64,000 bases of DNA. It comes from a virus (lineage: Duplodnaviria > Heunggongvirae > Uroviricota > Caudoviricetes). The DNA lies in IMG/VR virus record IMGVR_UViG_3300029610_000357, positions 52,285 through 116,284 of that record; one strand, 5' to 3'. A program made the translations under genes and the position numbers. Numbering within the stretch: position 1 is the first letter of the stretch; each line of letters starts with the position of its first letter. Below are positions 10,503 through 31,553 of the stretch, piece after piece. Under the pieces are notes generated by a model. The model was not told where the DNA came from. It saw nothing but the letters and a program-made list of their open reading frames with translations, and made no database searches.

Positions 10503-11060
10503 TTTTGACCTCCTTTTTGCTGTTTCTTTTTGTTAATTCAATGAAAAAATGCATTTGTCTGAGTAATGACACTTTTCTTTCGATAAATTCACATTACCAC
10601 AGATGTAGAGTAAAATCAATAGTTTTCTGAAGAAAAAATAAAATTGTGCGAGCAATGACACTTTTTATTTCATTTAAGTACGTTTAAGGAGGCTTAGACT
10701 GGGATTTTTATGTCAAGTGTTTTTTGGAAATTTCTTAAAATAGTGCTTTCTTTGGCTGTTTTACTTGGTTTGTTCTGGATTTTTCTTTGACTTGTTGTAC
10801 TTAGATGGGTAGAAATATGGCTGTTTTATGCGATTGTACAAAAATAAAATAAATTAATTCTTTATATGCTAAAGTATTGACTTTTGAAAAATCAAGTGTT
10901 TTTTGAAAGAAATTTAAAAAAATTTTTACCGTGTGGAATTCTCAGAGAAGGGGTTTGCATTTATATAAGAAGAGCTTGGTTTTTGAAAAAATTTCAGAGA
11001 GATGGGTTTATAGCAGAACAGGTGTTCTATATTTTAGAGTGTGTTAAGAGGTGCGTTTCT

Positions 11061-11167
11061 GGGGAAAGTTTTTATGAGGGGGAGGGGTGTATGTGGGGGT
11101 GTTTGGAAAGAAATGTTGGGGATGTTTTTAGGGGGTTTTGAGGGGGTTAAATGGCGTAGATGTGGGG
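11061..11167 (+). repeat. cluster of nine G4-G5 tracts (G-quadruplex-prone)
   Basis: GGGG/GGGGG runs at 11061, 11078, 11084, 11095, 11118, 11131, 11142, 11164 and others, within ~107 nt of an otherwise AT-rich genome. Confidence 0.6.
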
Positions 11168-11323
11168 TGGAGAAACGTCTGGCTGAACTTGTGGTATAGA
11201 ATTACCAGCTATACAAATATCAGCAAAACTGCGATTTAAAAATAGTTTTAAGTAGCCCCCTAAACACTTGTAAAAGTCCGTAAATAACTATTTACTTGCG
11301 TTTTTGATCAGAAATAGATAGTC

Positions 11324-11356
11324 AAAAAAGCACGTATTTATGCGGGTTTGAGACCG
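11324..11356 (-). promoter_or_regulatory. conserved 33-nt box, copy 2 (AAAAAAGCACGTATTTATGCGGGTTTGAGACCG)
   Basis: Direct repeat of 9341-9374. Confidence 0.35.
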
Positions 11357-12327
11357 TTTGAAAAGATTTTTAAAAATAATTTTTTTAGGGTATTGCAATA
11401 TTTTCGTGGGCATGGTCTTATACAGTTGTTCAAACGAACAGGGAACTTGATAAAACAACAACCGGCAAGGGTTGTAAAACGTGCTTGCCAATATTTCAAC
11501 ATAAAAAGGGGGTAGCCCTACCCCTGTATAAAAATTGGGCGTGTACCTTGATAACTGAATAAGTCTGAATCCGTTCGGCAAGTCTCCGAACAGGTTCAAA
11601 AAATCAGTTTCTTTGGAAACTGAACGACAGGCTAAAACTCTGCCCTGTTACTCATTCGTGACAGGCAGACAAGTAAACCTTTGACTTATTGCCTGTACCC
11701 AATGTCACACGAACGTGGTACAGGATTTATAAGAAGTCGTTGCAAGTCCAAAGAAGTGTAGCAGATTTTTTGAATCGGTTCGCAAAAATACAGGTAGTGA
11801 CAGCCTGTAGACAAACTACCAAACAGACGAAAGACTTCCTAAACGATATATTTTATATTGCTTAGTATAGTCGATATGACAGGGTGTCAAACATTGACGG
11901 TTGACCCAAAACACGTTCACATACTATAAGTCCCTGTGGTGGTGGGGTCCTGTCTTTCAAGTGTTTGAGAAGCGTTGTTGTTGACACTATAACAGAGTAC
12001 CGCCCACGGTAGAAAGTTCTAACAGGCACGACAACGGCTCTCATTCGAGCTGGGTATATTGTGCATTGAATACTACTACTTATCTAGTTCAACGGTAGGA
12101 GACTAGACTCTGTGAAATAATAGGCTATGACAGGTGCAACCCCTGTATAGTATCGAGTGAGTGCATGAACACTTGCGAGCGGTCAAAAGTCCCTTTAGGG
12201 ATAATATTAGAACTCTGTGAGTTCATTAGAATACACCTAACAGGTGTGGTCTAATGAGTTCATAGGAACTCAATGCAACAAATACATATTTTTTAGGGTA
12301 CGACTGTATCCGGAATAGGAGTTTATC

Positions 12328-16234: not shown

Positions 16235-16675
16235 ATGGAAATTATAATTATTGCAAGTGCACTTTTTGGGATTATGACCGGATGGGTGTTAGGATACTCA
16301 ATTAAAGAAGCTGAGGTAAAAGATACAAAGAACTTAGTCGATAATCTGAACAAGTTAACCAGCAAAATAACCGAAGTCGAAAAGGAACTGGCAGAAACCA
16401 AAAAGGAAAGAGATTACGAAAAAAGCATGAACATTCATTGGTTCAATGAATATGAAAGAATACGAGAAAAACATTATAGAGAAATGTCAAAACTCCGCCA
16501 GCAAACGGACTTTTTCGCAGCTGATGGAATAGACAAGTTTGTGGAAATGCGAAAACTAAAAAGCAAATGTTCAGAAGCTGTCAAGTATGCTATGAAAATG
16601 TCTCATCCAGACAACAATGGAAACGCCGAAGACTTTATGAAGTTCAGAAAGCTTTATAAAGAAATAACAGAATAG
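16235..16675 (+). CDS. membrane-anchored coiled-coil protein with C-terminal J-domain-like HPD segment
   Basis: TM helix, then VKYAMKMSHPDNNGNAEDFMKFRKLYKEI. Paralog of 40360..40794. Confidence 0.55.
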   Translation: MEIIIIASALFGIMTGWVLGYSIKEAEVKDTKNLVDNLNKLTSKITEVEKELAETKKERDYEKSMNIHWFNEYERIREKHYREMSKLRQQTDFFAADGIDKFVEMRKLKSKCSEAVKYAMKMSHPDNNGNAEDFMKFRKLYKEITE

Positions 16676-16687: not shown

Positions 16688-16984
16688 ATGTGGGAAATTG
16701 GAGATAGAGTGGTTGTTACTAAAGCCCCAGGTAGAACAATTGTAGCTAAGCTAGGCTACAAGGGAACAGTTATTGATGTAGTAGATACAAGCGTACTTGT
16801 TGAATTTGATAAATACATTGGTGGACATAGTGGAAGTTGGAGTTCTCGTAACGGAAAGTTCGGACATTGTTATTGGCTACATCAGCTTGACGATGCAGAC
16901 ACAATTGGGGCTTATGTAGACTTTGCTTTAAGAGAAGAAGACTGTGTGTGTAAGAAAATCAAAAGAAAAAACAACTTCTACTAA
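16688..16984 (+). CDS. KNNYY-tail family member 1 (group A)
   Basis: MWEIGDRVVV...VEFDKYIGGHSG...; ends KRKNNFY*. ATG 16688 preferred over GTG 16679. Confidence 0.8.
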   Translation: MWEIGDRVVVTKAPGRTIVAKLGYKGTVIDVVDTSVLVEFDKYIGGHSGSWSSRNGKFGHCYWLHQLDDADTIGAYVDFALREEDCVCKKIKRKNNFY

Positions 16985-17002
16985 AAGAAAGGCAAGGTAA
17001 AC

Positions 17003-17302
17003 ATGAGAGAACTTAAACTTGAAGATTGTAAAGTTGGGATGACTCTTAAGCTAAAGGAAGATTGTCCTTTTAGAAAGTATTGGGAAATAGATCCTAAGGA
17101 ACCGGTAAAGTGCATTGTCGTAGCAATGAACAGGAGTCGAAAAGATAACATTTTTGTAGATATCTACTATGAACATGAGCGAAAATGTACCCCAAAGAAT
17201 TGGTATTTCTATACAGAGGATTCATTAATAGACACTAACGATGATGAACTAATCTCAAAAAACTTAGAGTATCCGAACAAGCGAAAGAACAATTATTACT
17301 AA
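17003..17302 (+). CDS. KNNYY-tail family member 2 (group B)
   Basis: LKLEDCKVGMTLKLKEDCPF; ends KRKNNYY*. Confidence 0.8.
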   Translation: MRELKLEDCKVGMTLKLKEDCPFRKYWEIDPKEPVKCIVVAMNRSRKDNIFVDIYYEHERKCTPKNWYFYTEDSLIDTNDDELISKNLEYPNKRKNNYY

Positions 17303-17312
17303 GAGGTGTAAT

Positions 17313-17639
17313 ATGCAGAAAGAAAGAGAAATTCAATTTGAAGATTGTCATATTGGCGATGTTTTTAAGTTAGATAGACGCTCGCCATGGGTTATGGAAT
17401 GGATAATGGAATCAAATGGATACATCCCTAGAGAAGAAATCACAGCAGAGATTGTACATATGATAAATAATGGTGACATCAAAGAAGTTGGAATAAATGT
17501 TTATATAGGTAAAGCTTCATATGATCATTATGATACTTCTTATCTCCGAGAGGGAAGTAGGTATAAGGAAGACAATCTTGAAATGAATCTTAAAATGAAA
17601 AATCGTATCAAAGCAGGAAGAAAGAACAATTATTATTAG
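17313..17639 (+). CDS. KNNYY-tail family member 3 (group B)
   Basis: IQFEDCHIGDVFKLDRRSPW; ends GRKNNYY*. Confidence 0.8.
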   Translation: MQKEREIQFEDCHIGDVFKLDRRSPWVMEWIMESNGYIPREEITAEIVHMINNGDIKEVGINVYIGKASYDHYDTSYLREGSRYKEDNLEMNLKMKNRIKAGRKNNYY

Positions 17640-17649
17640 GAGTGGTTAT

Positions 17650-17958
17650 ATGAAGACAAAAGAAAGGGGAATTCGATTCGAAGATTGCCATGTTGGAGAT
17701 GTACTTAGGTTAAAAACAAGATGTCCTTTTGTGGACTTTTACCTTACATCTGAAGGAATTCCTGTGGCAAAAGAAGATAAGGTCACCGCAACAGTAGTTC
17801 ATAAAGGAAAAAATATTCTTGATGTAATAGTACATGTAAATGGAAAAAGATGTGCACTATATTGGGATTGTTGGCTTGCAAGTCCTACGGCTTATCGTGA
17901 ACATAATCTTCACATTAATGTCGATTCAAAGATTAATCGAAAGAACAACTATTATTAG
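17650..17958 (+). CDS. KNNYY-tail family member 4 (group B)
   Basis: IRFEDCHVGDVLRLKTRCPF; ends NRKNNYY*. Confidence 0.8.
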   Translation: MKTKERGIRFEDCHVGDVLRLKTRCPFVDFYLTSEGIPVAKEDKVTATVVHKGKNILDVIVHVNGKRCALYWDCWLASPTAYREHNLHINVDSKINRKNNYY

Positions 17959-17983
17959 ATATAAGAGAAAGGAAAATAAGGCT

Positions 17984-18277
17984 ATGGGATATTTTAAAGT
18001 AGGAGATAGAGTAGAAGTTATTAAAAGCCATACCGAGGATTCATGTATTGATCACTATGCTCCTGTAGGGCTTAAAGGAACTGTAGTTTATACAGAACCG
18101 AGACATTTGACAAAGCAAATAGCTGTTGAGTTTGATAAGTCTTTTAAAGAAGGACACGGTTGTGATGGAAAAGTAAGAGGTAAGCGAGGGCAGTGGTATG
18201 AATATGATCCACATTCCAATATATATTGGAAAAATTGCTTAAAAATCTTATCCAAAAAGAAAAACAACTATTACTAA
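17984..18277 (+). CDS. KNNYY-tail family member 5 (group A)
   Basis: MGYFKVGDRVEVIK...VEFDKSFKEGHG; ends KKKNNYY*. ATG 17984 after an AGGAAA RBS; the track start at 17840 overlaps the previous gene. Confidence 0.75.
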   Translation: MGYFKVGDRVEVIKSHTEDSCIDHYAPVGLKGTVVYTEPRHLTKQIAVEFDKSFKEGHGCDGKVRGKRGQWYEYDPHSNIYWKNCLKILSKKKNNYY

Positions 18278-18324
18278 AGGTATTTCAAAATCAGTGGAGT
18301 GATTTTTGTTAATACATGAAGAAA

Positions 18325-18349
18325 GGCGGGATTTATTCCCGTCTTTTTT
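18325..18349 (+). terminator. rho-independent terminator splitting the array
   Basis: GGCGGGA-tttat-TCCCGTC followed by TTTTTT. Confidence 0.75.
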
Positions 18350-18370
18350 CAAAACAGAAAGGAAATTAAG

Positions 18371-18766
18371 ATGAGCAAATTTAGATATTTAAATGAAGAA
18401 GAAACAAAAGTGTTATTACAGGTAACAGAATGGTTAGATAATCATTTCTTTAGTCCAGAAAATAAATTCGATGAAGAATATTTTGAGAAATACATGAGAG
18501 CAATCATTGACAACACAAGAGAAATGTACGAAGCGGTATACATTTGTGTGAACACAAAACCTGTAACTGTAATGATTTATGACTATGTGCTTGACATTAT
18601 TATTGCTGATGCACGAGTTGACAAAGAAGATAGAGAGATTGTAGAGATTGCCTTTACAACTTGGTTAATAAACATGACAGATAAACCATTTGAAAAGATT
18701 TTTGAATGGATGATTGAAGAAAGTTACAGGGGAAGAAAAGGAAGAGAGGATGAAGATAATGAATAG
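18371..18766 (+). CDS. hypothetical protein (no KNNYY tail)
   Basis: ORF track. Confidence 0.55.
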   Translation: MSKFRYLNEEETKVLLQVTEWLDNHFFSPENKFDEEYFEKYMRAIIDNTREMYEAVYICVNTKPVTVMIYDYVLDIIIADARVDKEDREIVEIAFTTWLINMTDKPFEKIFEWMIEESYRGRKGREDEDNE

Positions 18767-18902
18767 ATTTGAAACAGTAATGAAGTTAATTTGTTGGATT
18801 GCAGCAGTGACATTGGCATGGATGCACGTTTCAATTGTTGCAGTGATTGCACTTGCATTGGTTGGAACTTTTGGAAGCGAGGTTGATTTGAGTGCAAAGT
18901 AG
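18759..18902 (+). CDS. small membrane protein (47 aa)
   Basis: MNRFETVMKLICWIAAVTLAWMHVSIVAVIALALVGTF; two hydrophobic helices. Confidence 0.4.
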   Translation: MNRFETVMKLICWIAAVTLAWMHVSIVAVIALALVGTFGSEVDLSAK

Positions 18903-19212
18903 AGAAACGAGAAGAAAAGTACACTTTGGAGATTGTCATGTAGGCGATATTTTTAAGATAAGTTTGGATAGTCCTTGGTATGAGAAAGTAGGTCAATACC
19001 AATTTGAATTTAGTAGCGTTACTCTGTTCACCACACTAACAGTCAAAGTAGAAAAAATAAAACCAAGAGATGGAACCGTTTTAACACGCTTTTATATTGG
19101 TAATACACCAACAGAGTATAAATGGTGGTTTTTTAGAACTCCAGGGTCTGATATAGAAGCACTATCAGATAATCTTGAGTTTCTACCAAAGAGAAAGAAT
19201 AACTACTGGTAA
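18892..19212 (+). CDS. KNNYY-tail family member 6 (group B)
   Basis: GTG start. VHFGDCHVGDIFKISLDSPW; ends KRKNNYW*. Confidence 0.7.
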   Translation: MQSRETRRKVHFGDCHVGDIFKISLDSPWYEKVGQYQFEFSSVTLFTTLTVKVEKIKPRDGTVLTRFYIGNTPTEYKWWFFRTPGSDIEALSDNLEFLPKRKNNYW

Positions 19213-19226
19213 AGAGAGGTGTGAGG

Positions 19227-19544
19227 ATGGAAGAGAAAAGAGAAGTATGCTTCGATGATTGCGAAGTTGGCATGTTTTTTAGGATTGATAAAGACTGTCC
19301 ATGGATGTATGACAATGAGTGGATGGATGGTTTTGATACATTGACAAACGCAGATGAGTTAAAAGTTAAAATTATCGATAAAGATGCTGATGATAGCAGT
19401 GTTGAGATAGAATTTTGGGCAGATGGTCAAAAGACAGATATAACAGATTGGCTCTATCAGTTTGAAGACGATCCAGAAGACAGAATTGGAAATAACCTTG
19501 AGTTTATATTAAAGAGGAAAAATAGAAAAAATAACTATTGGTGA
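19227..19544 (+). CDS. KNNYY-tail family member 7 (group B)
   Basis: MEEKREVCFDDCEVGMFFRIDKDCPW; ends NRKNNYW*. Confidence 0.8.
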   Translation: MEEKREVCFDDCEVGMFFRIDKDCPWMYDNEWMDGFDTLTNADELKVKIIDKDADDSSVEIEFWADGQKTDITDWLYQFEDDPEDRIGNNLEFILKRKNRKNNYW

Positions 19545-19554
19545 GGTGGTGTAA

Positions 19555-19815
19555 ATGGATAATGAATTAAAAATTGGAATGAAGTTCTTAGAAGTAAAAA
19601 CCGGAATTGTCTGGAAGCTTACAGATATGAATTTTATACAAGAAGGGTTTTATATAATAGACAAATCATTGTGTTTTCAAGCTGTACGTATAAATACAGA
19701 CGAGGATGATGTATGGAGAAGTACATCGTCAATGATACCTAAGACAATGCTCGAAAGAAGATTGAAAAAAGGCGAATGGAAACAAATAAACAATAGAAAA
19801 AACAATTACTATTGA
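19555..19815 (+). CDS. KNNYY-tail family member 8 (group C)
   Basis: Ends NRKNNYY*. Confidence 0.8.
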   Translation: MDNELKIGMKFLEVKTGIVWKLTDMNFIQEGFYIIDKSLCFQAVRINTDEDDVWRSTSSMIPKTMLERRLKKGEWKQINNRKNNYY

Positions 19816-19837
19816 TTAATAGTAGAAAGGACATATT

Positions 19838-20977
19838 ATGGAGGATTTAAGATTAGTAACAACAGAAGAATTTAATGGAGTTGATTGCAACTTTTACAAG
19901 GCAGATAGTAACATGTGGATGACCAGAGGGCAGATTGGTAAAGCTTTAGGATATCACAACCCAAGGATTGCAATCGGGAAAATACATACTGCACATAGAG
20001 ATAGACTTGATCCACTTTCAGTTGATACCAATTTAGGGTCTACTGATGGAAAAGAATATTCTACTTATATATATAATGAAAGAGGCATCTTTGAAATCTG
20101 TAGATGGTCGAGACAGCCAAAAGCAAATGAATTTATGGATTGGGTATGGGACATTATAGAAGCTTACAGACATGGAGAATTCCAGAGAAAGCCTAGGGAA
20201 ACAGCCATTACACCTGTTGAGAAATTCTTAGATGGAATGCAGAATATGTTCTTAGAAATGAGAGAAGAGAACAAAATATTCAAAGATACTGTGTTGAAGA
20301 TTTTAGAATCTCAGCAAGGACAGGAAGTACAAAAACCTGTTGAAAAACTTGAAGCTCAAGAGAAAACTGTTAATCAAGTAAAAACAAAAGCAGCTGTTAA
20401 GCCAGTTGTTAAGATTGAAAACCCTAGATTAGACACTTGGAAGTTCGAAATTGGTACTAAAGCAGCTTATATTGTTTTTAATGGAAATGAATATAAAACA
20501 AAAGGAAAAGTATTCTCAGCATGTTATTCAAAAATGAAGAATGTGTATGGAATTTGTTGGTCACAGGAAAATAAAGAATACAGAAGAGCTTTCGGATTAG
20601 AATCTCAGAGAGGTAGATTAAGTACTTTAGATGTTGTATTCAATGATGAAAATTTGAAAGACCTGTTTGACAGTATTCTTGATGGAATATATGAAAACAC
20701 AAAAAGAAAAGCTATAAAGAAAAATACGGGAACCAATCCAGAAAAAGATTGGCAATATTATAAAGAAAAGATTCAAAAACTTTGTGAGCAAACAGGCAAC
20801 AAAAGTTTAGGCGGAAGCTCTATTTACTCAGGAATCATTAGAAAGATGGATGTAGACTGGAGCAAGTATGAAACAAACAAAAAGAAAACTGAATTAGTTA
20901 GAAAGTATCCAGAGTTATTTGCAGAGTTCTCTAAGACAGCGGATAAATATTTAGAGGAGAAGTTAAATGAGTATTAA
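19838..20977 (+). CDS. Bro-N-like DNA-binding domain protein interrupting the array
   Basis: N-terminus FNGVDCNFYKADSNMWMTRGQIGKALGYHNPRIAIGKIH resembles the Bro-N/antirepressor pattern. Confidence 0.5.
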   Translation: MEDLRLVTTEEFNGVDCNFYKADSNMWMTRGQIGKALGYHNPRIAIGKIHTAHRDRLDPLSVDTNLGSTDGKEYSTYIYNERGIFEICRWSRQPKANEFMDWVWDIIEAYRHGEFQRKPRETAITPVEKFLDGMQNMFLEMREENKIFKDTVLKILESQQGQEVQKPVEKLEAQEKTVNQVKTKAAVKPVVKIENPRLDTWKFEIGTKAAYIVFNGNEYKTKGKVFSACYSKMKNVYGICWSQENKEYRRAFGLESQRGRLSTLDVVFNDENLKDLFDSILDGIYENTKRKAIKKNTGTNPEKDWQYYKEKIQKLCEQTGNKSLGGSSIYSGIIRKMDVDWSKYETNKKKTELVRKYPELFAEFSKTADKYLEEKLNEY

Positions 20978-21086
20978 AATTTTAGGGCTTCGTCAAGATT
21001 GCTACAAAGTAATCATTGATGGAGTCCTTTTTAAATTCCCAACAGAACAAGAGTTTTTGGAATTCTTAGAGGAGATTGAGATATGA
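20967..21086 (+). CDS. small ORF (39 aa), coupled at both ends
   Basis: Own translation MSIKILGLRQDCYKVIIDGVLFKFPTEQEFLEFLEEIEI*. ATGA overlap with the next gene. Confidence 0.35.
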   Translation: MSIKILGLRQDCYKVIIDGVLFKFPTEQEFLEFLEEIEI

Positions 21087-21361
21087 GTTTTAGATTTGAA
21101 GTAGGTCAAGAGTTGGAATTACACAATAACTTGACGGATATGAAAGTTTACATGAGATCGGGAACGGTTGTTCGTATCTTAAGTAGAAAAACAAGAATGG
21201 ATCATACACAAGAGGTTGAGAGAAATCGTTACAAGATTGCATATGAATTTCATACAAATTTTTTGAAAATTGGAGATGGTTGTTGCCACTCTGGAAAAGA
21301 CTTTGTCTGGGAAGAAGATTTAATTAGAGCTGTCGGTCAACGGAAAAATAATTATTATTGA
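21083..21361 (+). CDS. KNNYY-tail family member 9 (group E singleton)
   Basis: Ends QRKNNYY*. Confidence 0.8.
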   Translation: MSFRFEVGQELELHNNLTDMKVYMRSGTVVRILSRKTRMDHTQEVERNRYKIAYEFHTNFLKIGDGCCHSGKDFVWEEDLIRAVGQRKNNYY

Positions 21362-21373
21362 GAGGTGATTAAA

Positions 21374-21643
21374 ATGTGGAAAGTTGGAGATAGAGTCGTA
21401 ATTATTCAAGATACTAGGAGACCTTTAAAATCCTTTGTAGGCTTTAAAGGAACTGTTAACTTTGTAGAAGAGGATGGGATAGGTGTAGCTTTTGACAAAT
21501 ATGTAAACGGTCATATGTTAGGAGGGAGTTGCCAAGACGGTCATGGATGGTATTTGTCCACAGACGGAGAGAACGAAAACGAAGCCGAAGCAAATGGAGT
21601 AAGAGTCAAGAAAATTAACAACAGAAAAAATAATTATTGGTAG
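21374..21643 (+). CDS. KNNYY-tail family member 10 (group A)
   Basis: MWKVGDRVVII...VAFDKYVNGH; ends NRKNNYW*. Confidence 0.8.
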   Translation: MWKVGDRVVIIQDTRRPLKSFVGFKGTVNFVEEDGIGVAFDKYVNGHMLGGSCQDGHGWYLSTDGENENEAEANGVRVKKINNRKNNYW

Positions 21644-21652
21644 GTGATAGGA

Positions 21653-21925
21653 ATGTGGGAAAAAGGTACAAGGGTTAGAATTATAAAATCAAATAGATCT
21701 ACAACACCAGTTGGTATCATAGGTACTGTGGTTTACATACGTAAGGATAAAAACGATCGTTTTATAGTAGAGTTTGACGAACCCATGGATGGGAATACCT
21801 TAACTGTTCTTTGTGATTGCAAACCGAACTGCTGGTGGTGGTTTGATAATGTTCCGGGGAGAGTTGTTGAAACAGATGGTATAACAATTGAAAAAATAGG
21901 AAAAAGAAAAAACAATTATTACTAA
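21653..21925 (+). CDS. KNNYY-tail family member 11 (group A)
   Basis: MWEKGTRVRII...VEFDEPMDG; ends KRKNNYY*. Confidence 0.8.
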   Translation: MWEKGTRVRIIKSNRSTTPVGIIGTVVYIRKDKNDRFIVEFDEPMDGNTLTVLCDCKPNCWWWFDNVPGRVVETDGITIEKIGKRKNNYY

Positions 21926-21937
21926 GGTGGTGAGAAT

Positions 21938-22249
21938 ATGTGGGAGATTGGAGATAGAGTGGCTGTTACAGACTTGGGCAAAGCCTCACAAGAGGATTTT
22001 GGAGTTGAAATAAAGGTTGGATACAAAGGAACTATTATCAACTTTTTAAAGGTTGCTGCCCCATGAAGTCCTGATGAGATAATTAAATTCTTAGTAGAGT
22101 TTGACGAATCCATGGGTGGACATAGTGGAAATGGAGCTTATGAAGGAAAGCGGGGACATTGTTGGTGGTTTGATTATTGTTTAGAAAAGGTTACTATCAC
22201 AGATGGCATAAGCATTGAGCAAGTCAAAAGGAAAAATAATTTTTACTAA
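21938..22249 (+). pseudogene. KNNYY-tail family member 12 (group A) with one in-frame TGA at 22064-22066
   Basis: Own translation MWEIGDRVAVTDLGK...KVAAP*SPDEIIKFLVEFDESMGGHSGNG...VKRKNNFY*. Family features are intact on both sides of the stop. Confidence 0.55.
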
Positions 22250-22261
22250 GGGGTGATTAAA

Positions 22262-22495
22262 ATGTGGGAAGTAGGTGACAGAGTAGTAGTTACTCGTGGA
22301 ATTAAAGCTAGTAGCGTATTTGAGACTAAAGCGAAAGGGACAGTCATTGCTATAGATGCGGAATTTACAATACCCGTATTGGTTGAAATAGATGGAACAG
22401 GAACAAGTATGTGGTTCTATGAAAATGGTGATGATTTAATCTGGGGCGGCATTACTTGCACACGAGCAAAAAAGAGAAAAAACAATTATTATTGA
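22262..22495 (+). CDS. KNNYY-tail family member 13 (group A)
   Basis: MWEVGDRVVVTRG; ends KRKNNYY*. Confidence 0.8.
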   Translation: MWEVGDRVVVTRGIKASSVFETKAKGTVIAIDAEFTIPVLVEIDGTGTSMWFYENGDDLIWGGITCTRAKKRKNNYY

Positions 22496-22511
22496 GAAAG
22501 GATGATGACAG

Positions 22512-22799
22512 GTGTTTAAGGTTGGAGATAGGATCGTATTAACAGAAGAAAGCCGCCAACATTGCAATATATTTGATGAACATCCGGGAGATATCGCAAC
22601 GGTTATTAGAGTTTCGCAAGTAACGAATGAACATGGTTATGAATGTGTTTTAGAATTTGATAAACATATTGGTGGACATGATGGATTAATCGATGCTAGA
22701 GGCAAGAACGGTCATTGTGTTATCTATTATTTTTGTTCAACACAGTGGGATAAGTATTTTAGGAAAATCCAAACCAAACGTAAGAATAACTATTATTGA
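22512..22799 (+). CDS. KNNYY-tail family member 14 (group A)
   Basis: GTG start. FKVGDRIVL...LEFDKHIGGHDG; ends KRKNNYY*. Confidence 0.75.
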   Translation: MFKVGDRIVLTEESRQHCNIFDEHPGDIATVIRVSQVTNEHGYECVLEFDKHIGGHDGLIDARGKNGHCVIYYFCSTQWDKYFRKIQTKRKNNYY

Positions 22800-22814
22800 G
22801 AAAGAGGTGATCGT

Positions 22815-23132
22815 ATGCCAGAGGATGTAAAGTACCGTCCAGTTCCTAAAGGATATAAAGGTGTTTTTAGACTAAGAAAAGATATAATATCCTTAAACAA
22901 TGAATTTTATGGGGCATGGGGCATTATAGACGACAAATTTTTAATCGATGAAGATTATTATAATGAAGAAAATGAATTTAAGGGAGATCCTAGTCATGTA
23001 ATTCGAGCAAGTTTTTACCCTAGCCTTTTAGATCTGCAAAGAGGTGAAAATCTTATTAGAGAAGTAGGAAGAGTGTCTGGGACAGAAAAGTGTTGTTATA
23101 TTCCTTTTAAAAGAAAAAATAATTACTATTAA
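22815..23132 (+). CDS. KNNYY-tail family member 15 (group D)
   Basis: KYRPVPKGYKGVFRLRKD; ends KRKNNYY*. Confidence 0.8.
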   Translation: MPEDVKYRPVPKGYKGVFRLRKDIISLNNEFYGAWGIIDDKFLIDEDYYNEENEFKGDPSHVIRASFYPSLLDLQRGENLIREVGRVSGTEKCCYIPFKRKNNYY

Positions 23133-23147
23133 GAAAGAGGTGATCAA

Positions 23148-23462
23148 ATGGAGAATGATGGTAAATATCCTCCAGTACCTAAAGGATACAAGGGTATTTT
23201 TAGAGTTAGACCTGATATGATAGAGTCAAATAATGTGTTCTATGGAGCATATGGTATTACAGGAAAAGGTATTATAGAAGACAGTGATTATTTAGAAGAC
23301 CAAGGAGAATTTACAGGAAATCCACATCATATAATTAAAGCCATTTTTTATCAAACCTATGAAGACTTAAAGAGCAGAGAATGTATGATACAGGGAAGGC
23401 CTGTTAAAATAAGAGAATGCTTGCTTTATCCAGTATCCAACAAGAAGAACAATTACTGGTAG
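23148..23462 (+). CDS. KNNYY-tail family member 16 (group D)
   Basis: KYPPVPKGYKGIFRVRPD; ends NKKNNYW*. Confidence 0.8.
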   Translation: MENDGKYPPVPKGYKGIFRVRPDMIESNNVFYGAYGITGKGIIEDSDYLEDQGEFTGNPHHIIKAIFYQTYEDLKSRECMIQGRPVKIRECLLYPVSNKKNNYW

Positions 23463-23472
23463 GTGGTTTAAG

Positions 23473-23742
23473 ATGATAGAAGCAAAAGATATTAAAGAGG
23501 GTATGAAAATTAAGTATGAAGGCTGGGAATGGACTATAACAAAAGTGTTTGCAAAATATAATAATGTCTTGGATCTTCGGAATGGTTATACTAAAAAAAT
23601 CATTGATCAAGATAGTTCATTGATTTGGATTGAAGCATCGAAGAGACGCTTTGTGCCTGAATCAATGACTATGGAATGGTTCTTTAAAGAACTGAAATAT
23701 GGAACAATAAAGATTTTAAATCGTAAAAATAATTATTATTGA
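23473..23742 (+). CDS. KNNYY-tail family member 17 (group C)
   Basis: IKEGMKIKYEGWEWTITKV; ends NRKNNYY*. Confidence 0.8.
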   Translation: MIEAKDIKEGMKIKYEGWEWTITKVFAKYNNVLDLRNGYTKKIIDQDSSLIWIEASKRRFVPESMTMEWFFKELKYGTIKILNRKNNYY

Positions 23743-23748
23743 GGTGAT

Positions 23749-24039
23749 ATGATGTATTTAGAAGACATTAAAGTTGGTCAGAGAGTGAATTATCGAGGTC
23801 ATTCCTATACAATAACTAAAAATGTTGTAAAGCGATGGAAAACAATAAGCCCCCATTCCTTATATTCATACATTAAGATAAGTACAAATTATTATAGATC
23901 ACGAATGTATTTCCAAAGAGTGGAAGACAAAAGTGAATCAGTTGACGGATTTTGGTTATTATATGACGAGATTGAAGAAAAAATGGATCGAGGGCTTATT
24001 AAATTTTTGAACATGTCAAAGAAAAATAATTATTATTAA
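23749..24039 (+). CDS. KNNYY-tail family member 18 (group C)
   Basis: IKVGQRVNYRGHSYTITKN; ends SKKNNYY*. Confidence 0.8.
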   Translation: MMYLEDIKVGQRVNYRGHSYTITKNVVKRWKTISPHSLYSYIKISTNYYRSRMYFQRVEDKSESVDGFWLLYDEIEEKMDRGLIKFLNMSKKNNYY

Positions 24040-24054: not shown

Positions 24055-25347
24055 GTGAACGAGATCAATAAAAGGAAATTAGAACTGTTCATGGATGATC
24101 AGCTATGGAGACAAAATATCACACATCAGCAAAGCAAAGGTGTACATAGAGATGTATTAAGAATTGTATGTGATCCAGAATACAAAGCACGGCTTTTAGG
24201 AATGATCTGGGATGGTAATTACAAAATTGCACCTCCGTATGTAGTAGAAATTCCTAAAGACAATGGAAAAGTAAGAGAAGTGTATGTTAATCAGCCAATT
24301 GACAGATTTGTTATGACACAAATCAATTATGTTTATATGCAATTATATGGTCATATGATTCATCCAAGATGTGTGTCTTATCAGAAAGGAATTGGAGTTA
24401 AAAATATCGTAGATGATATTTGTATGGAGCTTAAGAAACATCAAGGAGCTGTTGGGTATAAGGTAGACATTAGTAAGTATTTTGACAGTGTAAGCCGTGA
24501 GGTACTTAATGAAATGATTGATAAAATTGATACAGGAAGTCCTATTGATCAGATTGTAAGAGATTATTATATGGATGATTGTATCATTGATCAGAAAAGA
24601 AATGTTATTGAGAAATACAAAAGTATGACTCAAGGTTGTGCAGTGTCTACATTCTTTGCCAATTGTGTTTTAAGAGATGTAGACGAAGAGTTAAGCAAGA
24701 TGGATATTATTTATTACAGATATTCAGATGATATCTTGATGGTTGGTAAGGATGCAGATAAGGCTTTGAAGATGTTAGGAGAGATGTTAGAAACAAAAGG
24801 ACTTACATTAAATCCCAAAAAGGTAGAAACAGTCAGTACAGATCAATGGTTTACATTCTTAGGAGTGCGAATTAATGGACAGAAGAGAAGTTTTTCTGAA
24901 AAGAGCTTAAAGGAATTTCAGAAACACATTAGAGAATATGTAAATAAGAAAGCAGGAATTGGTAGCGTAAAAGTTGCAATCAGACAAATTAATAAATATC
25001 TGTATTTGAATTTCTTAAGGAATCCGAATGAGTTTGGTTGGGCTGAGTATTTCTTTAGTATTGTGAATGTCGAAGATGATATTAAGACATTAGATATGTG
25101 GATTAAAGATACACTCAGAGGTTTGTATACTGGTAAGAGAAAGGTTGGTGGTCTTGGTGTAAATAAAGTAACTGATGAATGTGGAGTATTAAGAGGGAAA
25201 GGAAAAAACGTAAGTGCAAATCTTGGTAAAACAAGAAGCGATAAAGACATTTTAGAAGAAGCAGGATATATCAGCATGAATGAAATGTATCATCAGTTTA
25301 GATACAGTAAAGAATTGTACAGGGCTTCATTGACGGCTTTATCTTAA
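24055..25347 (+). CDS. reverse transcriptase (stand-alone, class unassigned)
   Basis: RT motifs IPKDNGKVREVY, YKVDISKYFDSV, QGCAVSTFFANCVL, YYRYSDDILMVG (YxDD), LTLNPKKVE, FTFLGVRI, plus a ~140-aa C-terminal extension. GTG start 15 nt after the last KNNYY gene. Confidence 0.9.
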   Translation: MNEINKRKLELFMDDQLWRQNITHQQSKGVHRDVLRIVCDPEYKARLLGMIWDGNYKIAPPYVVEIPKDNGKVREVYVNQPIDRFVMTQINYVYMQLYGHMIHPRCVSYQKGIGVKNIVDDICMELKKHQGAVGYKVDISKYFDSVSREVLNEMIDKIDTGSPIDQIVRDYYMDDCIIDQKRNVIEKYKSMTQGCAVSTFFANCVLRDVDEELSKMDIIYYRYSDDILMVGKDADKALKMLGEMLETKGLTLNPKKVETVSTDQWFTFLGVRINGQKRSFSEKSLKEFQKHIREYVNKKAGIGSVKVAIRQINKYLYLNFLRNPNEFGWAEYFFSIVNVEDDIKTLDMWIKDTLRGLYTGKRKVGGLGVNKVTDECGVLRGKGKNVSANLGKTRSDKDILEEAGYISMNEMYHQFRYSKELYRASLTALS

Positions 25348-25403
25348 GTCAAACCTAACACGAGGTACTTATGTGAGATGTTATAAGTCAAATTAGATCA
25401 CTA

Positions 25404-25480
25404 GGAAGCTCTGGTGATTCCATGCATGGTTGATAACCAGCATTCCATCACCACTTCTTCCCAGATCTTATCATCATAAA
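25404..25480 (+). other. hairpin-box module A1: ~58-nt imperfect hairpin followed by ATCATAAA
   Basis: GGAAG-ctc-TGGTGA..ATGC-a-TGGTT-gat-AACCA-GCAT..TCACCA-ctt-CTTCC, then ATCATAAA at 25473-25480. Confidence 0.5.
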
Positions 25481-25563
25481 GGGAATTTAGAAACGTGTTA
25501 TTAACATGAACATAAGAAAGTTACTATGGACGTTGTATGTGAGACAATGGAATTACATATAAG

Positions 25564-25640
25564 GCGCGTTGAAGCTGCAGGATGACTGGCAATACATTGA
25601 CCAAGTCATCCCTGCAGCTCAACCGCTTTATAATCATAAA
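25564..25640 (+). other. hairpin-box module A2
   Basis: GCGCGTTGAAGCTGCAGGATGACTGG-loop-CCAAGTCATCCCTGCAGCTCAACCGC, then ATCATAAA at 25633-25640. Confidence 0.55.
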
Positions 25641-25721
25641 AGAATAAAGGAACATAGCATTATTGTGAGCATACAAACAAGCTAACATGGGCTAAACATA
25701 CGAGACGTTGAATCATACATA

Positions 25722-25815
25722 ATAAGGGCACAGCTGCCTTATGCAGCGGGAAATTAGTCTCCTCGACAATAATTTCACCGCTGCCACAGGCGTGCGTGCC
25801 CTTATTAATCATAAA
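25722..25815 (+). other. hairpin-box module A3
   Basis: ATAAGGGCAC...GCAGCGGGAAATT-loop-AATTTCACCGCTGC...GTGCCCTTAT, then ATCATAAACCAATAGAGAAA at 25808. Confidence 0.55.
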
Positions 25816-25864
25816 CCAATAGAGAAAACATGTCGCCAATGTAGAGTATGTAGAAAGGAAAATC

Positions 25865-26401
25865 ATGAAAAGTTTATTTAAAGTATTGTATGAGCTGTCA
25901 CAAGGAAATACCTTAATGATTAATAGTTGCATGTCTTTTAGAATGACAACTGATCTATACAAAAGACAAGTGAGATTTAAGAAGTATAAGGTTGTTGATC
26001 AAGGAAGCGTAGTAAGTGATGTGACATTGTGTAGTGGAGAAGTTATTGAGTATGATGACTTAATAAAGGAAGGAGATTTAGATTTTATATTGCCAACTGA
26101 ATTAAATGAAAAAGAAAATCCATATGAGGTTATTGAATACCTGTATGGATTATTTTATTGCTCAGTTCCTGATAGATCTGCTGTTCAAAAGAAACAAAAT
26201 TTTATAGCAAAAGGATTAAATGATTTTGGGGCAAATGATTTTACAGGAATGAGAAGAAGTGAAATTCAGCCATTGTTAGAGCTCTATGTGTTACTCGCTG
26301 GAATGAAAGGATGGATCACTTGGAAAGATGATAAGTTGTTCTTTTGGAAAGGTGGACATAAGAGTTTGTATATATATAGAAAATGGATTTTAGGTTATTA
26401 G
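25865..26401 (+). CDS. hypothetical protein
   Basis: ORF track; AGGAAA RBS. Confidence 0.5.
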   Translation: MKSLFKVLYELSQGNTLMINSCMSFRMTTDLYKRQVRFKKYKVVDQGSVVSDVTLCSGEVIEYDDLIKEGDLDFILPTELNEKENPYEVIEYLYGLFYCSVPDRSAVQKKQNFIAKGLNDFGANDFTGMRRSEIQPLLELYVLLAGMKGWITWKDDKLFFWKGGHKSLYIYRKWILGY

Positions 26402-26418
26402 GAAAGGAAGAATGTAAA

Positions 26419-27180
26419 ATGAATGTAGAAAAGAGTTTAGAAAAAGCAGGAGTAGACACAAAGAAATATCCTTCATTAGCTATGCAGAATATTTTAGGAT
26501 ATCAAGGGAAAGCGTTTGCAGAAAATTCATACCTGTATAAAAAGATTATGGAAGATGGACATGTGTTTAATCCTTATATACACAGAAGATGGCTTCCATA
26601 TCAGTTTATGAATGCTGTCCATTGGACAAGACGGTATTATGTAGAGACTATTGGTTATGTAAAGATGCTTGAAAAAGAATTGATGCGTGGCAATAATGTA
26701 GATAATTGGAAATATATGTACGATAAATTTGGAAAAGAGCTTAATGCTTTATATACACTCTCAAAAAGAGATAAAAAAGCGTATAAAGAAAGATGGGCTG
26801 CTTTTGGAAGGTTAGAAATTTTGAATTATTTTTCTCAAGGGTTTGATTGTATAGGGATAAATCAGAATACATTCTTGGAAATGAAAAATTTATTAGCGGA
26901 TGAAAGATTTGAAGCTGAACGATATTGGCGATATACTAATTGTTTATTGTATAAACAGTCACAATTTAGAAAAGATTTGGTAACAACAACTTTCCATTCA
27001 GGAATTTATTTTACATTAAAACACATTATGATGTTTGATTATGACAAATTACATATGTCTTCATCCCAAAAAGAAAGCCTAAAACGAATTAGAGAAGACT
27101 TAATTAATGGAGATTTCAATTATGAGCAGGCTTTTACAATTATTGAAGATTACGTAGCAAGATATTACAATCCAAGATAG
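26419..27180 (+). CDS. hypothetical protein
   Basis: ATG 26419 after a GGAAAGGAAG RBS. Confidence 0.55.
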   Translation: MNVEKSLEKAGVDTKKYPSLAMQNILGYQGKAFAENSYLYKKIMEDGHVFNPYIHRRWLPYQFMNAVHWTRRYYVETIGYVKMLEKELMRGNNVDNWKYMYDKFGKELNALYTLSKRDKKAYKERWAAFGRLEILNYFSQGFDCIGINQNTFLEMKNLLADERFEAERYWRYTNCLLYKQSQFRKDLVTTTFHSGIYFTLKHIMMFDYDKLHMSSSQKESLKRIREDLINGDFNYEQAFTIIEDYVARYYNPR

Positions 27181-28807: not shown

Positions 28808-29596
28808 ATGGCAACAGAGTTTGACAAACGAATGAAAGCTTATGAATGTGTCTCAAGACAGTACTTAACAAGAAGAGTACCAGTTGCGATCAGAGTAGAT
28901 GGAAAGGCATTTCATACATTCACTAGAGGGTTTCAGAAACCGTTCGATGAAGTGCTTAGCAATGCAATGCAGGCCACAATGATGAAAATGTGTAGACAGA
29001 TTCAAGGTTGTGTGTTTGCTTACACACAGAGTGATGAAATTACATTTATTCTTATCGATTATCAGAAGCTAAATTCTGATGGCTGGTTTAACTACCGTAC
29101 TGATAAGATGTGTAGCATTGCAGCGAGTATGGCTACTATGGAGTTCAATAAGGTATTTAGTGCTTTTGTTTATGGATTTAAGGTAAACAAGGGAGAAGAC
29201 ATATCAAGTGAAGATATGGAAGTGCTTAAAGCCTATGAGAAATCTAAAGAACGTGGAGCTATGTTTGATGCTAGAGCATTTTCAATTCCAAAAGAAGAAG
29301 TTACGAATCTAATTTATTGGAGACAGCAAGACGCTATGAGGAATGCAGTTCAGATGGTTGGACAAGCATTTTATTCCCACAAAGAGCTTCAGGGTGTTAA
29401 TTGTGAGATGCTTAAAGAAATGTTACTGGCTGATAAGGGAATTGATTGGGATAAGATTCCTGTGAAATATCAGAGAGGTAGCTGTTGTGTCAAGGTTGAT
29501 GGTGAATGGACTATTGACAATAACATTTCTATCTTCAGAGGTAGTGACAGAGAGCAAATTGATAAGCTTGTGTTTGTTGAGAGTGAAGAGAACTGA
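28808..29596 (+). CDS. Thg1-like protein (tRNA-His guanylyltransferase family, 3'-5' polymerase)
   Basis: FDKRMKAYE...PVAIRVDGKAFHTFTRGFQKPFD...AYTQSDEITFIL matches the Thg1 catalytic pattern (RxDG..F, SDE). Confidence 0.75.
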   Translation: MATEFDKRMKAYECVSRQYLTRRVPVAIRVDGKAFHTFTRGFQKPFDEVLSNAMQATMMKMCRQIQGCVFAYTQSDEITFILIDYQKLNSDGWFNYRTDKMCSIAASMATMEFNKVFSAFVYGFKVNKGEDISSEDMEVLKAYEKSKERGAMFDARAFSIPKEEVTNLIYWRQQDAMRNAVQMVGQAFYSHKELQGVNCEMLKEMLLADKGIDWDKIPVKYQRGSCCVKVDGEWTIDNNISIFRGSDREQIDKLVFVESEEN

Positions 29597-29829: not shown

Positions 29830-30573
29830 ATGAATGAAGTAGAAACAAAAGAGATCCCGTTTTATGGAGATACGCTTTTAGGTGTAAAAGATGAGGATGG
29901 AGAAGTTTGGTTGGCAATCAGAAGCACATGTATACAGCTAGGGTTTAATGAAAGACGAGCAAGGGCACAAAGAGAGAAAATTCAAGCTGACAAAGTCTTA
30001 TCCAAAGGTGGCCGAAATTTTGGCCTCCTTACAGCAGGGGGTAAACAAGAAACATTTTGCTTACATGAAACATATGTGCCACTTTGGTTAGCTAAAATTA
30101 CATTAACCAAAAAGATGGAAGAGGATATTCCCAATGTTGTTGAAAAGCTAGAAAGATATCAACTTGAAGCAAGAGATGTTTTACATAGGGAAATGTATGG
30201 CACAGAAGAACAGAAAGAAAAGCTTCACAATAACCTAGGTTTGCAAGGAGAGATTATACAACTAAAAGATGCTGTAGATTCTGTAACTGAACAGCTTAAA
30301 GATCAAACAGAGAGATTAGATTTAGTAATGAACAATATGACTATTGATACTAAAAAGCAGAGTCGTATTCAAAAGGCCGCAAAGGAAAGAGTAAGTGAAT
30401 TACTTGGTGGAGCTCATTCAGGACTGTATAAAGCTAAAGGTGCTTTGTATTTTGCAAATCTGTGGCATCAATTGAGATTAGAATTTGAATGTGGAACTTA
30501 TAAAGATCTTAGTCCAAACGATTTTGATGATGCTATGAGCTTTATTCAGAGTTGGACATATGTAGAAAGGTAG
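29830..30573 (+). CDS. antirepressor-like protein (P22 AR N-terminal-like plus ORF6C-like C-terminal domain)
   Basis: IPFYGDTLLGVKDEDGEVWLAIRSTCIQLGF. The C-terminus RVSELLGGAHSGLYKAKGALYFANLWHQLRLEFECG is paralogous to 36072..36815. Confidence 0.55.
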   Translation: MNEVETKEIPFYGDTLLGVKDEDGEVWLAIRSTCIQLGFNERRARAQREKIQADKVLSKGGRNFGLLTAGGKQETFCLHETYVPLWLAKITLTKKMEEDIPNVVEKLERYQLEARDVLHREMYGTEEQKEKLHNNLGLQGEIIQLKDAVDSVTEQLKDQTERLDLVMNNMTIDTKKQSRIQKAAKERVSELLGGAHSGLYKAKGALYFANLWHQLRLEFECGTYKDLSPNDFDDAMSFIQSWTYVER

Positions 30574-30584
30574 AGGGAAGAAAG

Positions 30585-31553
30585 ATGAGAACAATTACAA
30601 ATACACATACAGGAAAAATTATTTCTGATACAGATTTAACATTGGAATATCTTTATGTTGGAGATTATGGAAAAGAAAATAACATTAAAGCAGATTTTCT
30701 TGGATATAACAAACGTATTGAGAAAGTAGAACATAAACCTGTTAATGTAAAAGAAAAATTAGTTGTTACTGTTTCTTCCCAGAAAGGTTGTCCAATGCAT
30801 TGTAATTTCTGTGATTGTCCTAAGCTTGGATTTAAAGGAAATGCATCTTTAGCTGAGCTCATGGCTGAAATCACATCTGGAATCGCTTTATCTGGAGTAA
30901 AAGATGGAGAACGACTAAATGCGCATTATGCCAGAATGGGTGAACCTACATTTAATCCAAATGTAATTGTTTCTGCAAGACAGGTTGCTCTAATGTTGGC
31001 TGATCCTGATGGAGATATTCATTTTGATACATATCACCCTGTTGTTTCTACAATGATGCCAAAAGCAAATCAGAACTTGAAAGCGTTTTTATTCAAATGG
31101 ATAGCAACAGGTTTCCAATACGGTGGAGAAGATGGTTTCGGTCTTCAGTTTTCTATCAATACATTAGATGAAGAACAGCGAAATGAAATGTTTAGAGAAT
31201 GTTCTTTGTCGTTAGAAGAAATTGGAGCTATTATTGACGATCTTCCAATGCCAAAGAAACGCAAATATACATTAAATTTTGCAGTTACATCTGAAAGCAA
31301 CTTGGATGTTGATTTAATGAACAAGTATTTTGACAAAGAAAAGTGCATTGTTAAGATTACTCCAATTCATGAAACAGTTGAAGCTGTCGATGAAGGTTAT
31401 GAGATTGTTACAGATTTTGATGTTTATGAAAAATTTGAACAGCCTTTAGTAGAAGACGGTTGGGATGTAATTGTATTTGTTCCATCAAAAGAAGAAGATG
31501 CAGACAGAATTACATGTGGAAATTCATTGATTGCATTGAACAAAGATGAATAG
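30585..31553 (+). CDS. radical SAM enzyme, RlmN/Cfr-like RNA methyltransferase
   Basis: VSSQKGCPMHCNFCDCPKLGFKGNASLAEL (CxxxCxxC in RlmN-like context), MGEPTFNPN, C-terminal ITCGNSL (compare aaCGQL). Confidence 0.55.
   Translation: MRTITNTHTGKIISDTDLTLEYLYVGDYGKENNIKADFLGYNKRIEKVEHKPVNVKEKLVVTVSSQKGCPMHCNFCDCPKLGFKGNASLAELMAEITSGIALSGVKDGERLNAHYARMGEPTFNPNVIVSARQVALMLADPDGDIHFDTYHPVVSTMMPKANQNLKAFLFKWIATGFQYGGEDGFGLQFSINTLDEEQRNEMFRECSLSLEEIGAIIDDLPMPKKRKYTLNFAVTSESNLDVDLMNKYFDKEKCIVKITPIHETVEAVDEGYEIVTDFDVYEKFEQPLVEDGWDVIVFVPSKEEDADRITCGNSLIALNKDE

Follow-up and report, generated by a model that had tools for sequence, protein, structure and literature searches.

Why should eighteen small phage genes, falling into groups without detectable sequence similarity to one another, all finish in the same six residues? 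The question is raised by a 64,000-nucleotide (nt) stretch of a Caudoviricetes genome (IMG/VR record IMGVR_UViG_3300029610_000357, positions 52,285 to 116,284), the whole of which we call the window, in which an array of small open reading frames (ORFs) ends in [RK]-K-N-N-[YF]-[YW] directly before the stop codon. We refer to this ending as the tail and to the genes that carry it as tailed genes, with residues counted back from the last one (position -1). The tail is under selection as a peptide, and we think it on balance probable that one shared partner reads it as a short linear docking motif, specificity being supplied by the variable bodies of the proteins.

A six-frame scan of the window found [RK]KNN[YF][YW]-stop at the end of exactly 18 ORFs, all on the plus strand and all between 16688 and 24039, just as had been proposed in a sequence-only reading of the window; 17 of these are intact and one is a pseudogene (21938-22249). 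Outside the array the ending was absent from both strands of the window. The window has 244 stop-to-stop ORFs of 60 or more codons, in which the amino-acid composition predicts only 4e-5 such ends by chance. In the 18 tails, position -6 is encoded by AGA nine times, AAG three times, CGA and CGT twice each, and CGG and AGG once each, the lysine by AAA in 12 and AAG in 6, and the two asparagines by AAC and AAT in proportions of 9/9 and 6/12. Tyrosine is written both as TAT and as TAC, the stop that follows is TAA in 8 cases, TGA in 6 and TAG in 4, and the codon proportions are near the window's own usage. Information content per column was at background level directly 5' of the tail, and the sole conserved DNA on its 3' side was the Shine-Dalgarno sequence of the next gene. 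Because the synonymous sites of the tail are free and the flanking DNA is not conserved, the constraint lies on the peptide, and selection acts on the tail peptide and not on a DNA site. The sequence-only reading had pointed to the synonymous codons and the use of all three stops and had drawn the same conclusion from them, and both the codon counts and the information profile bear it out.

The tail was equally well defined in the 263 unique tailed proteins that the fetched loci together yielded, and their consensus was [KN]-[RK]-K-N-N-[YF]-[YW]. Asn -4 and Asn -3 were invariant, Lys -5 was present in 257 of the 263 and was replaced by arginine in none, and at position -6 arginine (218) and lysine (42) interchanged freely. 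Position -2 was tyrosine or phenylalanine and never tryptophan, and position -1 was tyrosine or tryptophan and never phenylalanine, with tyrosine the terminal residue in 14 of the 18 window tails. Uncommon variants were RNNNFY and KTNNYY; a sibling strain carries the variant KKRNNNFY at the position of the first gene of the array (A1), and tails in a more distant sublineage read KRKNNY, PRKNNF or QKNNFY. The motif directly abutted the stop codon every time and no internal copies were found in homologues, a pattern that fits recognition including the free C-terminus. The last eight residues were net positive in all tailed proteins and the proteins were hydrophilic; a common charge of the bodies, such as an idea of DNA mimicry would suggest, was looked for in the tailed proteins and not found. 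A full-text literature search for KNNYY returned nothing relevant, and Pfam, NCBIfam and PADLOC hold no model for the tail, in agreement with the earlier statement that no described family or signal carries it. A shared targeting peptide is a known principle; the tag itself and the clade-wide array are not known to have been described before.

In front of the tail, the tailed proteins (77-108 amino acids, aa) consist of a body of roughly 70-100 aa. When the last eight residues were stripped and the groups compared profile to profile by hhalign, all pairings of the major groups (A to F) stayed below a probability of 10%, and the only links joined group A to group H, C1 to C2 and K, and F to I; across the clade, the tailed proteins formed nine BLAST families. 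The window itself holds six groups where at least five had been counted from the N-termini, the gene at 21083-21361 being a separate one. Group A resembles the Pfam family SH3_12 (PF18129), with A2 scoring above the cutoff (Table 1) and A1, A3 and A4 scoring 21-22 bits, below it; the Pfam search reported no SH3_12 match for A6, A7 or groups B to F, and groups B to F had no Pfam match. A profile search of 1.84 billion representative proteins returned 867 relatives of group A, most of them with two to six tandem SH3-like copies; the long homologues matched SH3_12 at up to 63 bits, and this wider family of tandem SH3-like repeats also matched SH3_15, DUF4314 and DUF4926. Among these relatives the tail occurred in short stand-alone members only, every one of which that was traced belongs to the phage clade described here, and other short homologues do not have it. 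A PDB sequence search with the group A profile found nothing significant. Proteins of this family (P0164-P0311) share the signature GDRV..GTV..VEFD..GH..G..GHCWW, repeated in up to six tandem copies per protein, and some of them carry signal peptides or beta-helix domains.

For group B, a structure model of B3 (predicted local distance difference test score, pLDDT, of 72) showed a small beta-barrel with weak SH3, Tudor and KOW matches, in which the tail was predicted to be disordered (tail pLDDT below 50). Many groups also share an N-terminal phi-x-phi-G-D/x-x-phi strand and a phi-x-phi-x-K-phi strand directly before the tail. The groups are unrelated in sequence, then, but may share a small-barrel architecture, as one very divergent fold; the earlier description of them as unrelated stands for sequence and perhaps fails for fold, with group A SH3-like and group B SH3/Tudor-like in its model. 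The SH3_12/DUF4314-like barrels (PF18129, PF14192) that group A bodies resemble are themselves families without a conserved C-terminal tail. We also considered the tail as a leftover linker between repeats and rejected it, as the tandem group A homologues have KEEPK-type linkers and no internal KNNYY.

The array is followed by the gene for a UG27-class reverse transcriptase (RT), and 79 UG27 loci were fetched from IMG/VR and every ORF end in them scanned. Tails were present in 11 of the 79, exactly those with an RT at least 97% identical to that of the window, and the remaining 68 (RT 37-52% identical) had no tail and no other C-terminal 4-mer repeated beyond isolated two-copy matches. Contigs with an intermediate RT (85% and 70% identity) carry tailed arrays, and the tail was found only where the RT was at least 70% identical. 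A DNA-pattern scan of IMG/VR gave, among the matches listed, multi-tail loci from this clade only, and a protein-guided scan of JGI metagenomes led to the same clade only, a stretch of 20 kb containing as many as 20 tailed genes. The tail is thus confined to one clade of ~131-kb SPbeta-like human-gut phages with about 20 or more tailed genes per genome. The helicase is 41% identical to SPbeta YorI, Pfam matches include YorF, YonJ and YonG, and window positions 14055-35347 match a contig of 216 kb from a human-gut metagenome (ENA ERZ918360) at 100% identity. No close relative was found in GTDB genomes (best RT identity 46%), and no nucleotide match in the GenBank phage collection. The sequence-only reading had held that homologues lacking the tail in related phages would count against it; such homologues were found as distant relatives of the group A domain only, and not within the clade.

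Within the clade the bodies change quickly and the tail does not. Among strains with RTs 97-100% identical, the ratio of nonsynonymous to synonymous substitution rates (dN/dS) was 0.17-0.73 for the tailed genes versus 0.03 for the RT, 0.02 for Thg1 and 0.11 for RTas346. The gene content of the array differed among the same strains, with cassettes gained and lost, and paralogue chimeras were frequent, as in the group D chimeras P0144 and P0162 of the public data, with the tail fixed throughout. For A7, 23 homologue clusters at 69-97% identity were found, and the inspected orthologues were tailed save for frameshifted or variant forms such as P0023 and P0020. In L080, from the sublineage with an RT at 70% identity, there are tailed genes on the downstream side of the RT as well (16235-16573 and 18316-18615), and between them lie an ArdA anti-restriction gene and P22-type antirepressor genes.

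We envisage the 18 ORFs as part of a clade-specific, fast-diversifying family of small, soluble accessory proteins of SPbeta-like temperate phage, each of which would combine a variable body (an SH3/Tudor-like barrel in at least groups A and B) with a flexible basic stretch and an invariant free C-terminus. A shared reader would recognise [KN]-[RK]-K-N-N-[YF]-[YW]-COOH together with the terminal carboxylate, the variable body would give each member its own target, and the family would serve a single machine as interchangeable adaptors or effectors, with host takeover or counter-defence as the most plausible role. Docking is what we infer from the fixed peptide on fast-changing bodies, and the possible readers may be ranked as an AAA+ protease first, a ubiquitin-like/E1/JAMM cassette acting on Lys -5 second and a virion component third. 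In the first case host ClpX or ClpC together with phage ClpP would use the tail as a turnover or delivery tag, and we rank it first because a free terminus is needed, the end is basic and then aromatic, a phage ClpP is nearby and no cassette is required. The ClpP-family protease gene lies ~10 kb to the right of the window end (L237:22225-22301), among genes of replication and nucleotide metabolism, after nrdD and nrdG and not beside head genes.

Precedents for such a tag are found in two settings. C-terminal degrons of AAA+ proteases are disordered peptides at the extreme C-terminus, a description that also suits the tail, which abuts the stop and is disordered in the group B model. The ssrA tag and the ClpX C-motif 2 of MuA (RRKKAI) are short, disordered, extreme C-terminal and read with the free carboxylate, and the phage proteins MuA and lambda O use AAA+ degron-type tags. 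Both these degrons and the tail are basic and then nonpolar or aromatic at the terminus, but the NN[YF][YW] core is undescribed and the tail is not known to match any documented degron in sequence. The second precedent is that of the T4 internal proteins, which are diverse anti-defence proteins sharing only a short targeting peptide and one destination (PMC3012670). The likeness consists of a hyperplastic locus, fast-evolving small proteins and one short conserved peptide, whereas the T4 capsid targeting sequence (CTS) is N-terminal and the tail is C-terminal, of different sequence and in an early-type operon of an SPbeta-like siphovirus-type genome. The T4 CTS is removed by the prohead protease. 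A docking, packaging or degradation tag, which the sequence-only reading had put forward, remains the best class of explanation.

Several points weigh against a docking motif. To our knowledge the tail matches no known degron sequence, and its resemblance to ssrA and the ClpX motif of MuA is general only. The near-invariant lysine and both asparagines would equally fit covalent chemistry, and barrel support is confined to groups A and B, the AlphaFold2 (AF2) model of group D (pLDDT 50) being unusable. Since the tail occurs in a single clade, its co-occurrence with the Bro-N gene of the array, p165, p190, the cassette and ClpP is in every case confounded by shared ancestry. The cassette occurs without tails in six loci, and the window has its 17 intact tails without the cassette; neither shows an obvious dependence on the other.

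The foremost of the rival explanations, which we regard as unlikely, takes the tail as a covalent acceptor or recognition tag, written and erased on Lys -5 by an E1-like ThiF protein, a 79-aa modifier and a JAMM peptidase, with the [NN][YF][YW]-COOH part a recognition element standing in for E2 or E3. The genes in question form a 5.3-kb cassette. Of 10 contigs encoding the identical RT, 9 have it within the array, as do all IMG/VR relatives and the two tailed sublineages further removed (L080 and L083), which places it mid-array in relatives from three sublineages. It comprises two pairs of a ~120-aa protein and a 79-aa protein ending VVKADSA-x, a 574-aa protein with an invariant P-H-x5-C-x-G, a 321-aa protein whose JAMM motif E...HSH-x7-S-x2-D (E, HxH, S and D) is invariant in seven homologues, and a 227-aa ThiF-like E1 (E=4.7e-21). 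The 79-aa protein has the conserved end VVKA[DEA][SA]A and its best PDB profile match was ThiS, which was not significant (E=0.37), and no E2 was recognised in the cassette by Pfam or NCBIfam. All of this speaks for a modification tag, as does the complete absence of arginine at position -5 in the 263 sequences. The cassette resembles CBASS Cap2/Cap3, Bil and Bub in joining an E1-like ThiF, a JAMM peptidase and a small beta-grasp-like protein; it differs from them in being phage-encoded, in having no recognisable E2 and in a modifier that ends in Ala and not Gly-Gly, and it is linked to the tail by position only.

In the window, no trace of the cassette genes was found by tblastn, so that E1, peptidase and modifier share a locus with the tail inside the arrays of relatives and not here. 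The pseudogene at 21938-22249 combines parts of two paralogues, those found on either side of the cassette in relatives, with nt 1-243 matching positions 1948-2196 of relative L001 at 90% and nt 163-327 matching L001 8035-8199 at 91.5%, which indicates that recombination between the paralogues deleted the cassette (a deletion of ~5.6 kb). The window has lost the cassette, yet keeps its 17 intact tailed genes. Conversely, the cassette directly abuts the UG27 RT in the tail-less outgroups L012, L013, L015 and L016 (at ~5900-9950, with the RT at 10001), and also occurs without tails in L097 and L099. Adjacency within a mosaic accessory region is moreover weak evidence, and an acceptor-lysine model leaves unexplained that the asparagine pair is as invariant as the lysine. 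The phage cassette is itself undescribed, and its linkage to UG27 RTs appears to be so too, as it is not mentioned in PMC9226505 and neither of the papers found to mention UG27 also mentions ubiquitin. It is improbable, in our view, that the tail is the substrate tag of a phage ubiquitin-like system in which more than 20 beta-barrel adaptors carry a modifier or a recruited protease to host targets; in a variant of this idea, NN[YF][YW]-COOH would be the degron for a phage ClpP-based machine, as a natural tag-and-reader system.

Two further explanations have a slim chance each. The tail might target the proteins to the virion by docking to capsid, scaffold or portal, so that anti-defence proteins are packaged and injected with the DNA, as the architecture reminiscent of T4 internal proteins (PMC3012670) and the fast-evolving bodies would allow; the array, however, lies in an operon leading to replication genes and not among structural genes, and the tag is C-terminal with no sign of cleavage. 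With similarly little probability, the tail might be a structural element inherited from one tailed ancestor and engaged in intramolecular contacts or self-association, by packing against the barrel or oligomerising. The similar lengths, the beta-rich content, the strand patterns shared at the N-terminus and before the tail, and the SH3-like character of both groups A and B are what one would expect of such an element, but the tail is disordered in the group B model, distant and tandem-repeat homologues of group A fold without it, and a common intramolecular site is unlikely in bodies of no detectable similarity.

The two specific links made in the sequence-only reading, to the adjacent RT and to radical-SAM enzymes, both fail on the 68 tail-less UG27 loci and the variable presence of the radical-SAM-like genes. 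That the tail serves the RT as substrate, primer or cofactor, for example in protein priming from the terminal tyrosines, is suggested by a last tailed gene that stops 15 nt before the RT start and by tails ending in tyrosine. We hold it to be highly improbable: outside the clade, all 68 UG27 loci lack the tail and any other C-terminal 4-mer repeated beyond isolated two-copy matches, so that tail and UG27 RT do not go together family-wide, and L080 has tailed genes 5-8 kb downstream of its RT as well. The UG27 system of gut phages comprises the RT, a non-coding RNA with three hairpins and two other genes, and no function was assigned to it (Mestre et al. 2022, PMC9226505); a complete system is present at 24055-27180 of the window (RT, non-coding region, RTas346 and RTas337), and its published parts are thus all accounted for without need of the array.

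A peptide crosslink of K-x3-[YW], made by a radical-SAM enzyme in the manner of streptide or otherwise, with the ORFs as precursors like those of ribosomally synthesised and post-translationally modified peptides, is hardly more credible. The K-x3-aromatic spacing is indeed that of streptide (a KGDGW Lys-Trp crosslink made by the radical-SAM enzyme StrB), and the window has two radical-SAM-like ORFs. Their matches are sub-threshold, however, with RlmN/Cfr-like and MoaA-like cores and no SPASM match in either, and they lie 6.5-10 kb from the array, beyond the RT system. They also come and go among tailed phages: 30552-31553 is absent from the tailed loci L116, L080 and L083, and 33835-34746 from L107, L109, L111, L113 and L115, each being present in only some of otherwise near-identical phages. 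In contrast to streptide, there is no adjacent SPASM radical-SAM enzyme, the substrates would be folded 77-108-aa domains and not leader-core peptides, and the last residue is mostly tyrosine.

Least credible of all is a nucleic-acid signal (an attC-like site, a translational coupler or enhancer, or readthrough polyproteins), for which the A/U-rich tail codons just upstream of the next ribosome-binding site and the common reading frame of 8 of the 10 neighbouring gene pairs in the RT-proximal block, as judged from coordinates, might speak, but which is opposed by five arginine codons, all three stops and ordinary synonymous usage, by tails that also stand before a terminator and before the RT, by the shared frames arising because paralogues carry duplicated 12- and 15-nt spacers, by each gene having its own Shine-Dalgarno sequence and start codon and, for an integron attC site, by the lack of conserved DNA beyond the tail codons and the Shine-Dalgarno sequence and an integrase (44125-45114) ~20 kb away. 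An arbitrium-like precursor was also considered and rejected. The RRNPP/arbitrium systems of the SPbeta group act through the final 5-7 residues of a precursor that the phage encodes, and the tail is likewise C-terminal and preceded by basic residues that offer a possible cleavage site; here, in contrast, the proteins are folded, 77-108 aa long, without signal peptides and ~20 per genome, and in a limited test no AimR/AimP-like pair was found in the control region, whose 378-aa neighbour has no Pfam match.

The layout of the array is given in Table 1. It forms the head of a long rightward operon that runs on into replication genes (helicase, Pol III alpha and a RecD-like protein), and a promoter scan was uninformative, giving fewer matches than shuffled sequence. 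Each tailed gene has its own start codon and a ribosome-binding site of the GGAGG/GAGGTG type, as had been claimed for the array, and the spacers from stop to next start are 6-25 nt by the coordinates and not 3-20 nt. The interruptions named earlier, a terminator and a Bro-N gene, were both found, and to these we add two ORFs, one of 131 aa without a tail and a small overlapping one; an automated hairpin scan reports the terminator-like hairpin on the minus strand only. Arrays of all three tailed sublineages contain the Bro-N gene, with orthologues at 62% identity in L083 and 41% in L080, and no full-length orthologue was found within 10 kb in the tail-less outgroups.

Table 1. The tailed array, the UG27 system and related features, in window coordinates unless a locus is named; the second coordinate of each tailed ORF is that of its stop.
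Feature	Coordinates	Strand	Length and remarks
A1, tailed gene	16688-16984	+	98 aa; SH3-like group A; end KRKNNFY; SH3_12 E=2e-4 (sub-threshold)
B1, tailed gene	17003-17302	+	99 aa; group B; end KRKNNYY
B2, tailed gene	17313-17639	+	108 aa; group B; end GRKNNYY
B3, tailed gene	17650-17958	+	102 aa; group B; end NRKNNYY; source of structure model
A2, tailed gene	17984-18277	+	97 aa; group A; end KKKNNYY; SH3_12 31.3 bits (cutoff 26.2); intrinsic terminator next
Terminator-like hairpin and T-run	18326-18349	+	Closes first block of five tailed genes; read from sequence
Tail-less ORF in array	18371-18766	+	131 aa; no family match; conserved in L117
Small overlapping ORF interrupting array	18714-18902		
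B4, tailed gene	18892-19212	+	106 aa; group B; end KRKNNYW
B5, tailed gene	19221-19544	+	Group B; likely start ATG 19227; acidic body, net charge -18; end NRKNNYW
E, tailed gene	19555-19815	+	86 aa; own group; end NRKNNYY
Bro-N domain protein, tail-less	19838-20977	+	379 aa; Pfam Bro-N E=1e-7
F, tailed gene	21083-21361	+	92 aa; own group; end QRKNNYY; dN/dS 0.17
A3, tailed gene	21374-21643	+	89 aa; group A; end NRKNNYW; dN/dS 0.73
A4, tailed gene	21653-21925	+	90 aa; group A; end KRKNNYY; dN/dS 0.37
Tailed pseudogene	21938-22249	+	In-frame TGA at 22064; chimera of two paralogues
A6, tailed gene	22262-22495	+	77 aa; group A; end KRKNNYY; dN/dS 0.53
A7, tailed gene	22512-22799	+	95 aa; group A; end KRKNNYY; dN/dS 0.60
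D1, tailed gene	22815-23132	+	105 aa; group D; end KRKNNYY; AF2 pLDDT 50, too weak to use
D2, tailed gene	23148-23462	+	104 aa; group D; end NKKNNYW
C1, tailed gene	23473-23742	+	89 aa; group C; end NRKNNYY
C2, tailed gene	23749-24039	+	96 aa; group C; end SKKNNYY; stop 15 nt ahead of RT start
UG27-class reverse transcriptase	24055-25347	+	PADLOC RT_UG27 E=3e-168; Pfam RVT_1
UG27-associated non-coding region	25348-25864	+	517 nt; three long hairpins; minimum free energy -162.6 kcal/mol, z = -9.6 versus shuffles
RTas346	25865-26401	+	PADLOC E=2e-13
RTas337	26383-27180	+	PADLOC E=5e-10
Radical-SAM-like ORF 1	30552-31553		Sub-threshold Pfam match
Radical-SAM-like ORF 2	33835-34746		Sub-threshold Pfam match
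Ubiquitin-like/E1/JAMM cassette	L001:2496-7633		Absent from window; scar at window 21938-22249

Elsewhere in the window, about 1.8 kb without a convincing ORF (10503-12327) forms a large divergent control region between leftward genes and the rightward operon. A ROOL RNA (Rfam RF03087, 306 bits) lies at 2594-3205, inside a cluster of seven tRNA genes (Thr, Gln, Trp, Arg, Tyr, Glu and Ser) at 2262-3868 on the minus strand. In a tRNA-like gene at 32482-32631 on the plus strand, acceptor stem, D arm and T arm are intact but the anticodon region has an insertion of ~78 nt; the gene scored 42.5 bits with the Rfam tRNA model, was missed by ARAGORN, and could encode a tRNA with an intron or be a disrupted one. 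The Thg1-like gene (28808-29596) is found 3 kb upstream of it.

With around 20 rapidly evolving tagged proteins per genome, the family makes up roughly 5% of a widespread human-gut prophage, and the tag offers a direct route into this part of the phage 'dark matter', as the tail peptide can be used as bait for its reader. Shared address peptides such as signal peptides, degrons and the T4 CTS are among biology's most useful handles. If the bodies bind host factors, the family would provide phage effectors as a library already equipped with a shared handle, and should the tail prove to be the tag of a ubiquitin-like system instead, it would represent a viral toolkit for targeted modification free of E2 and E3.

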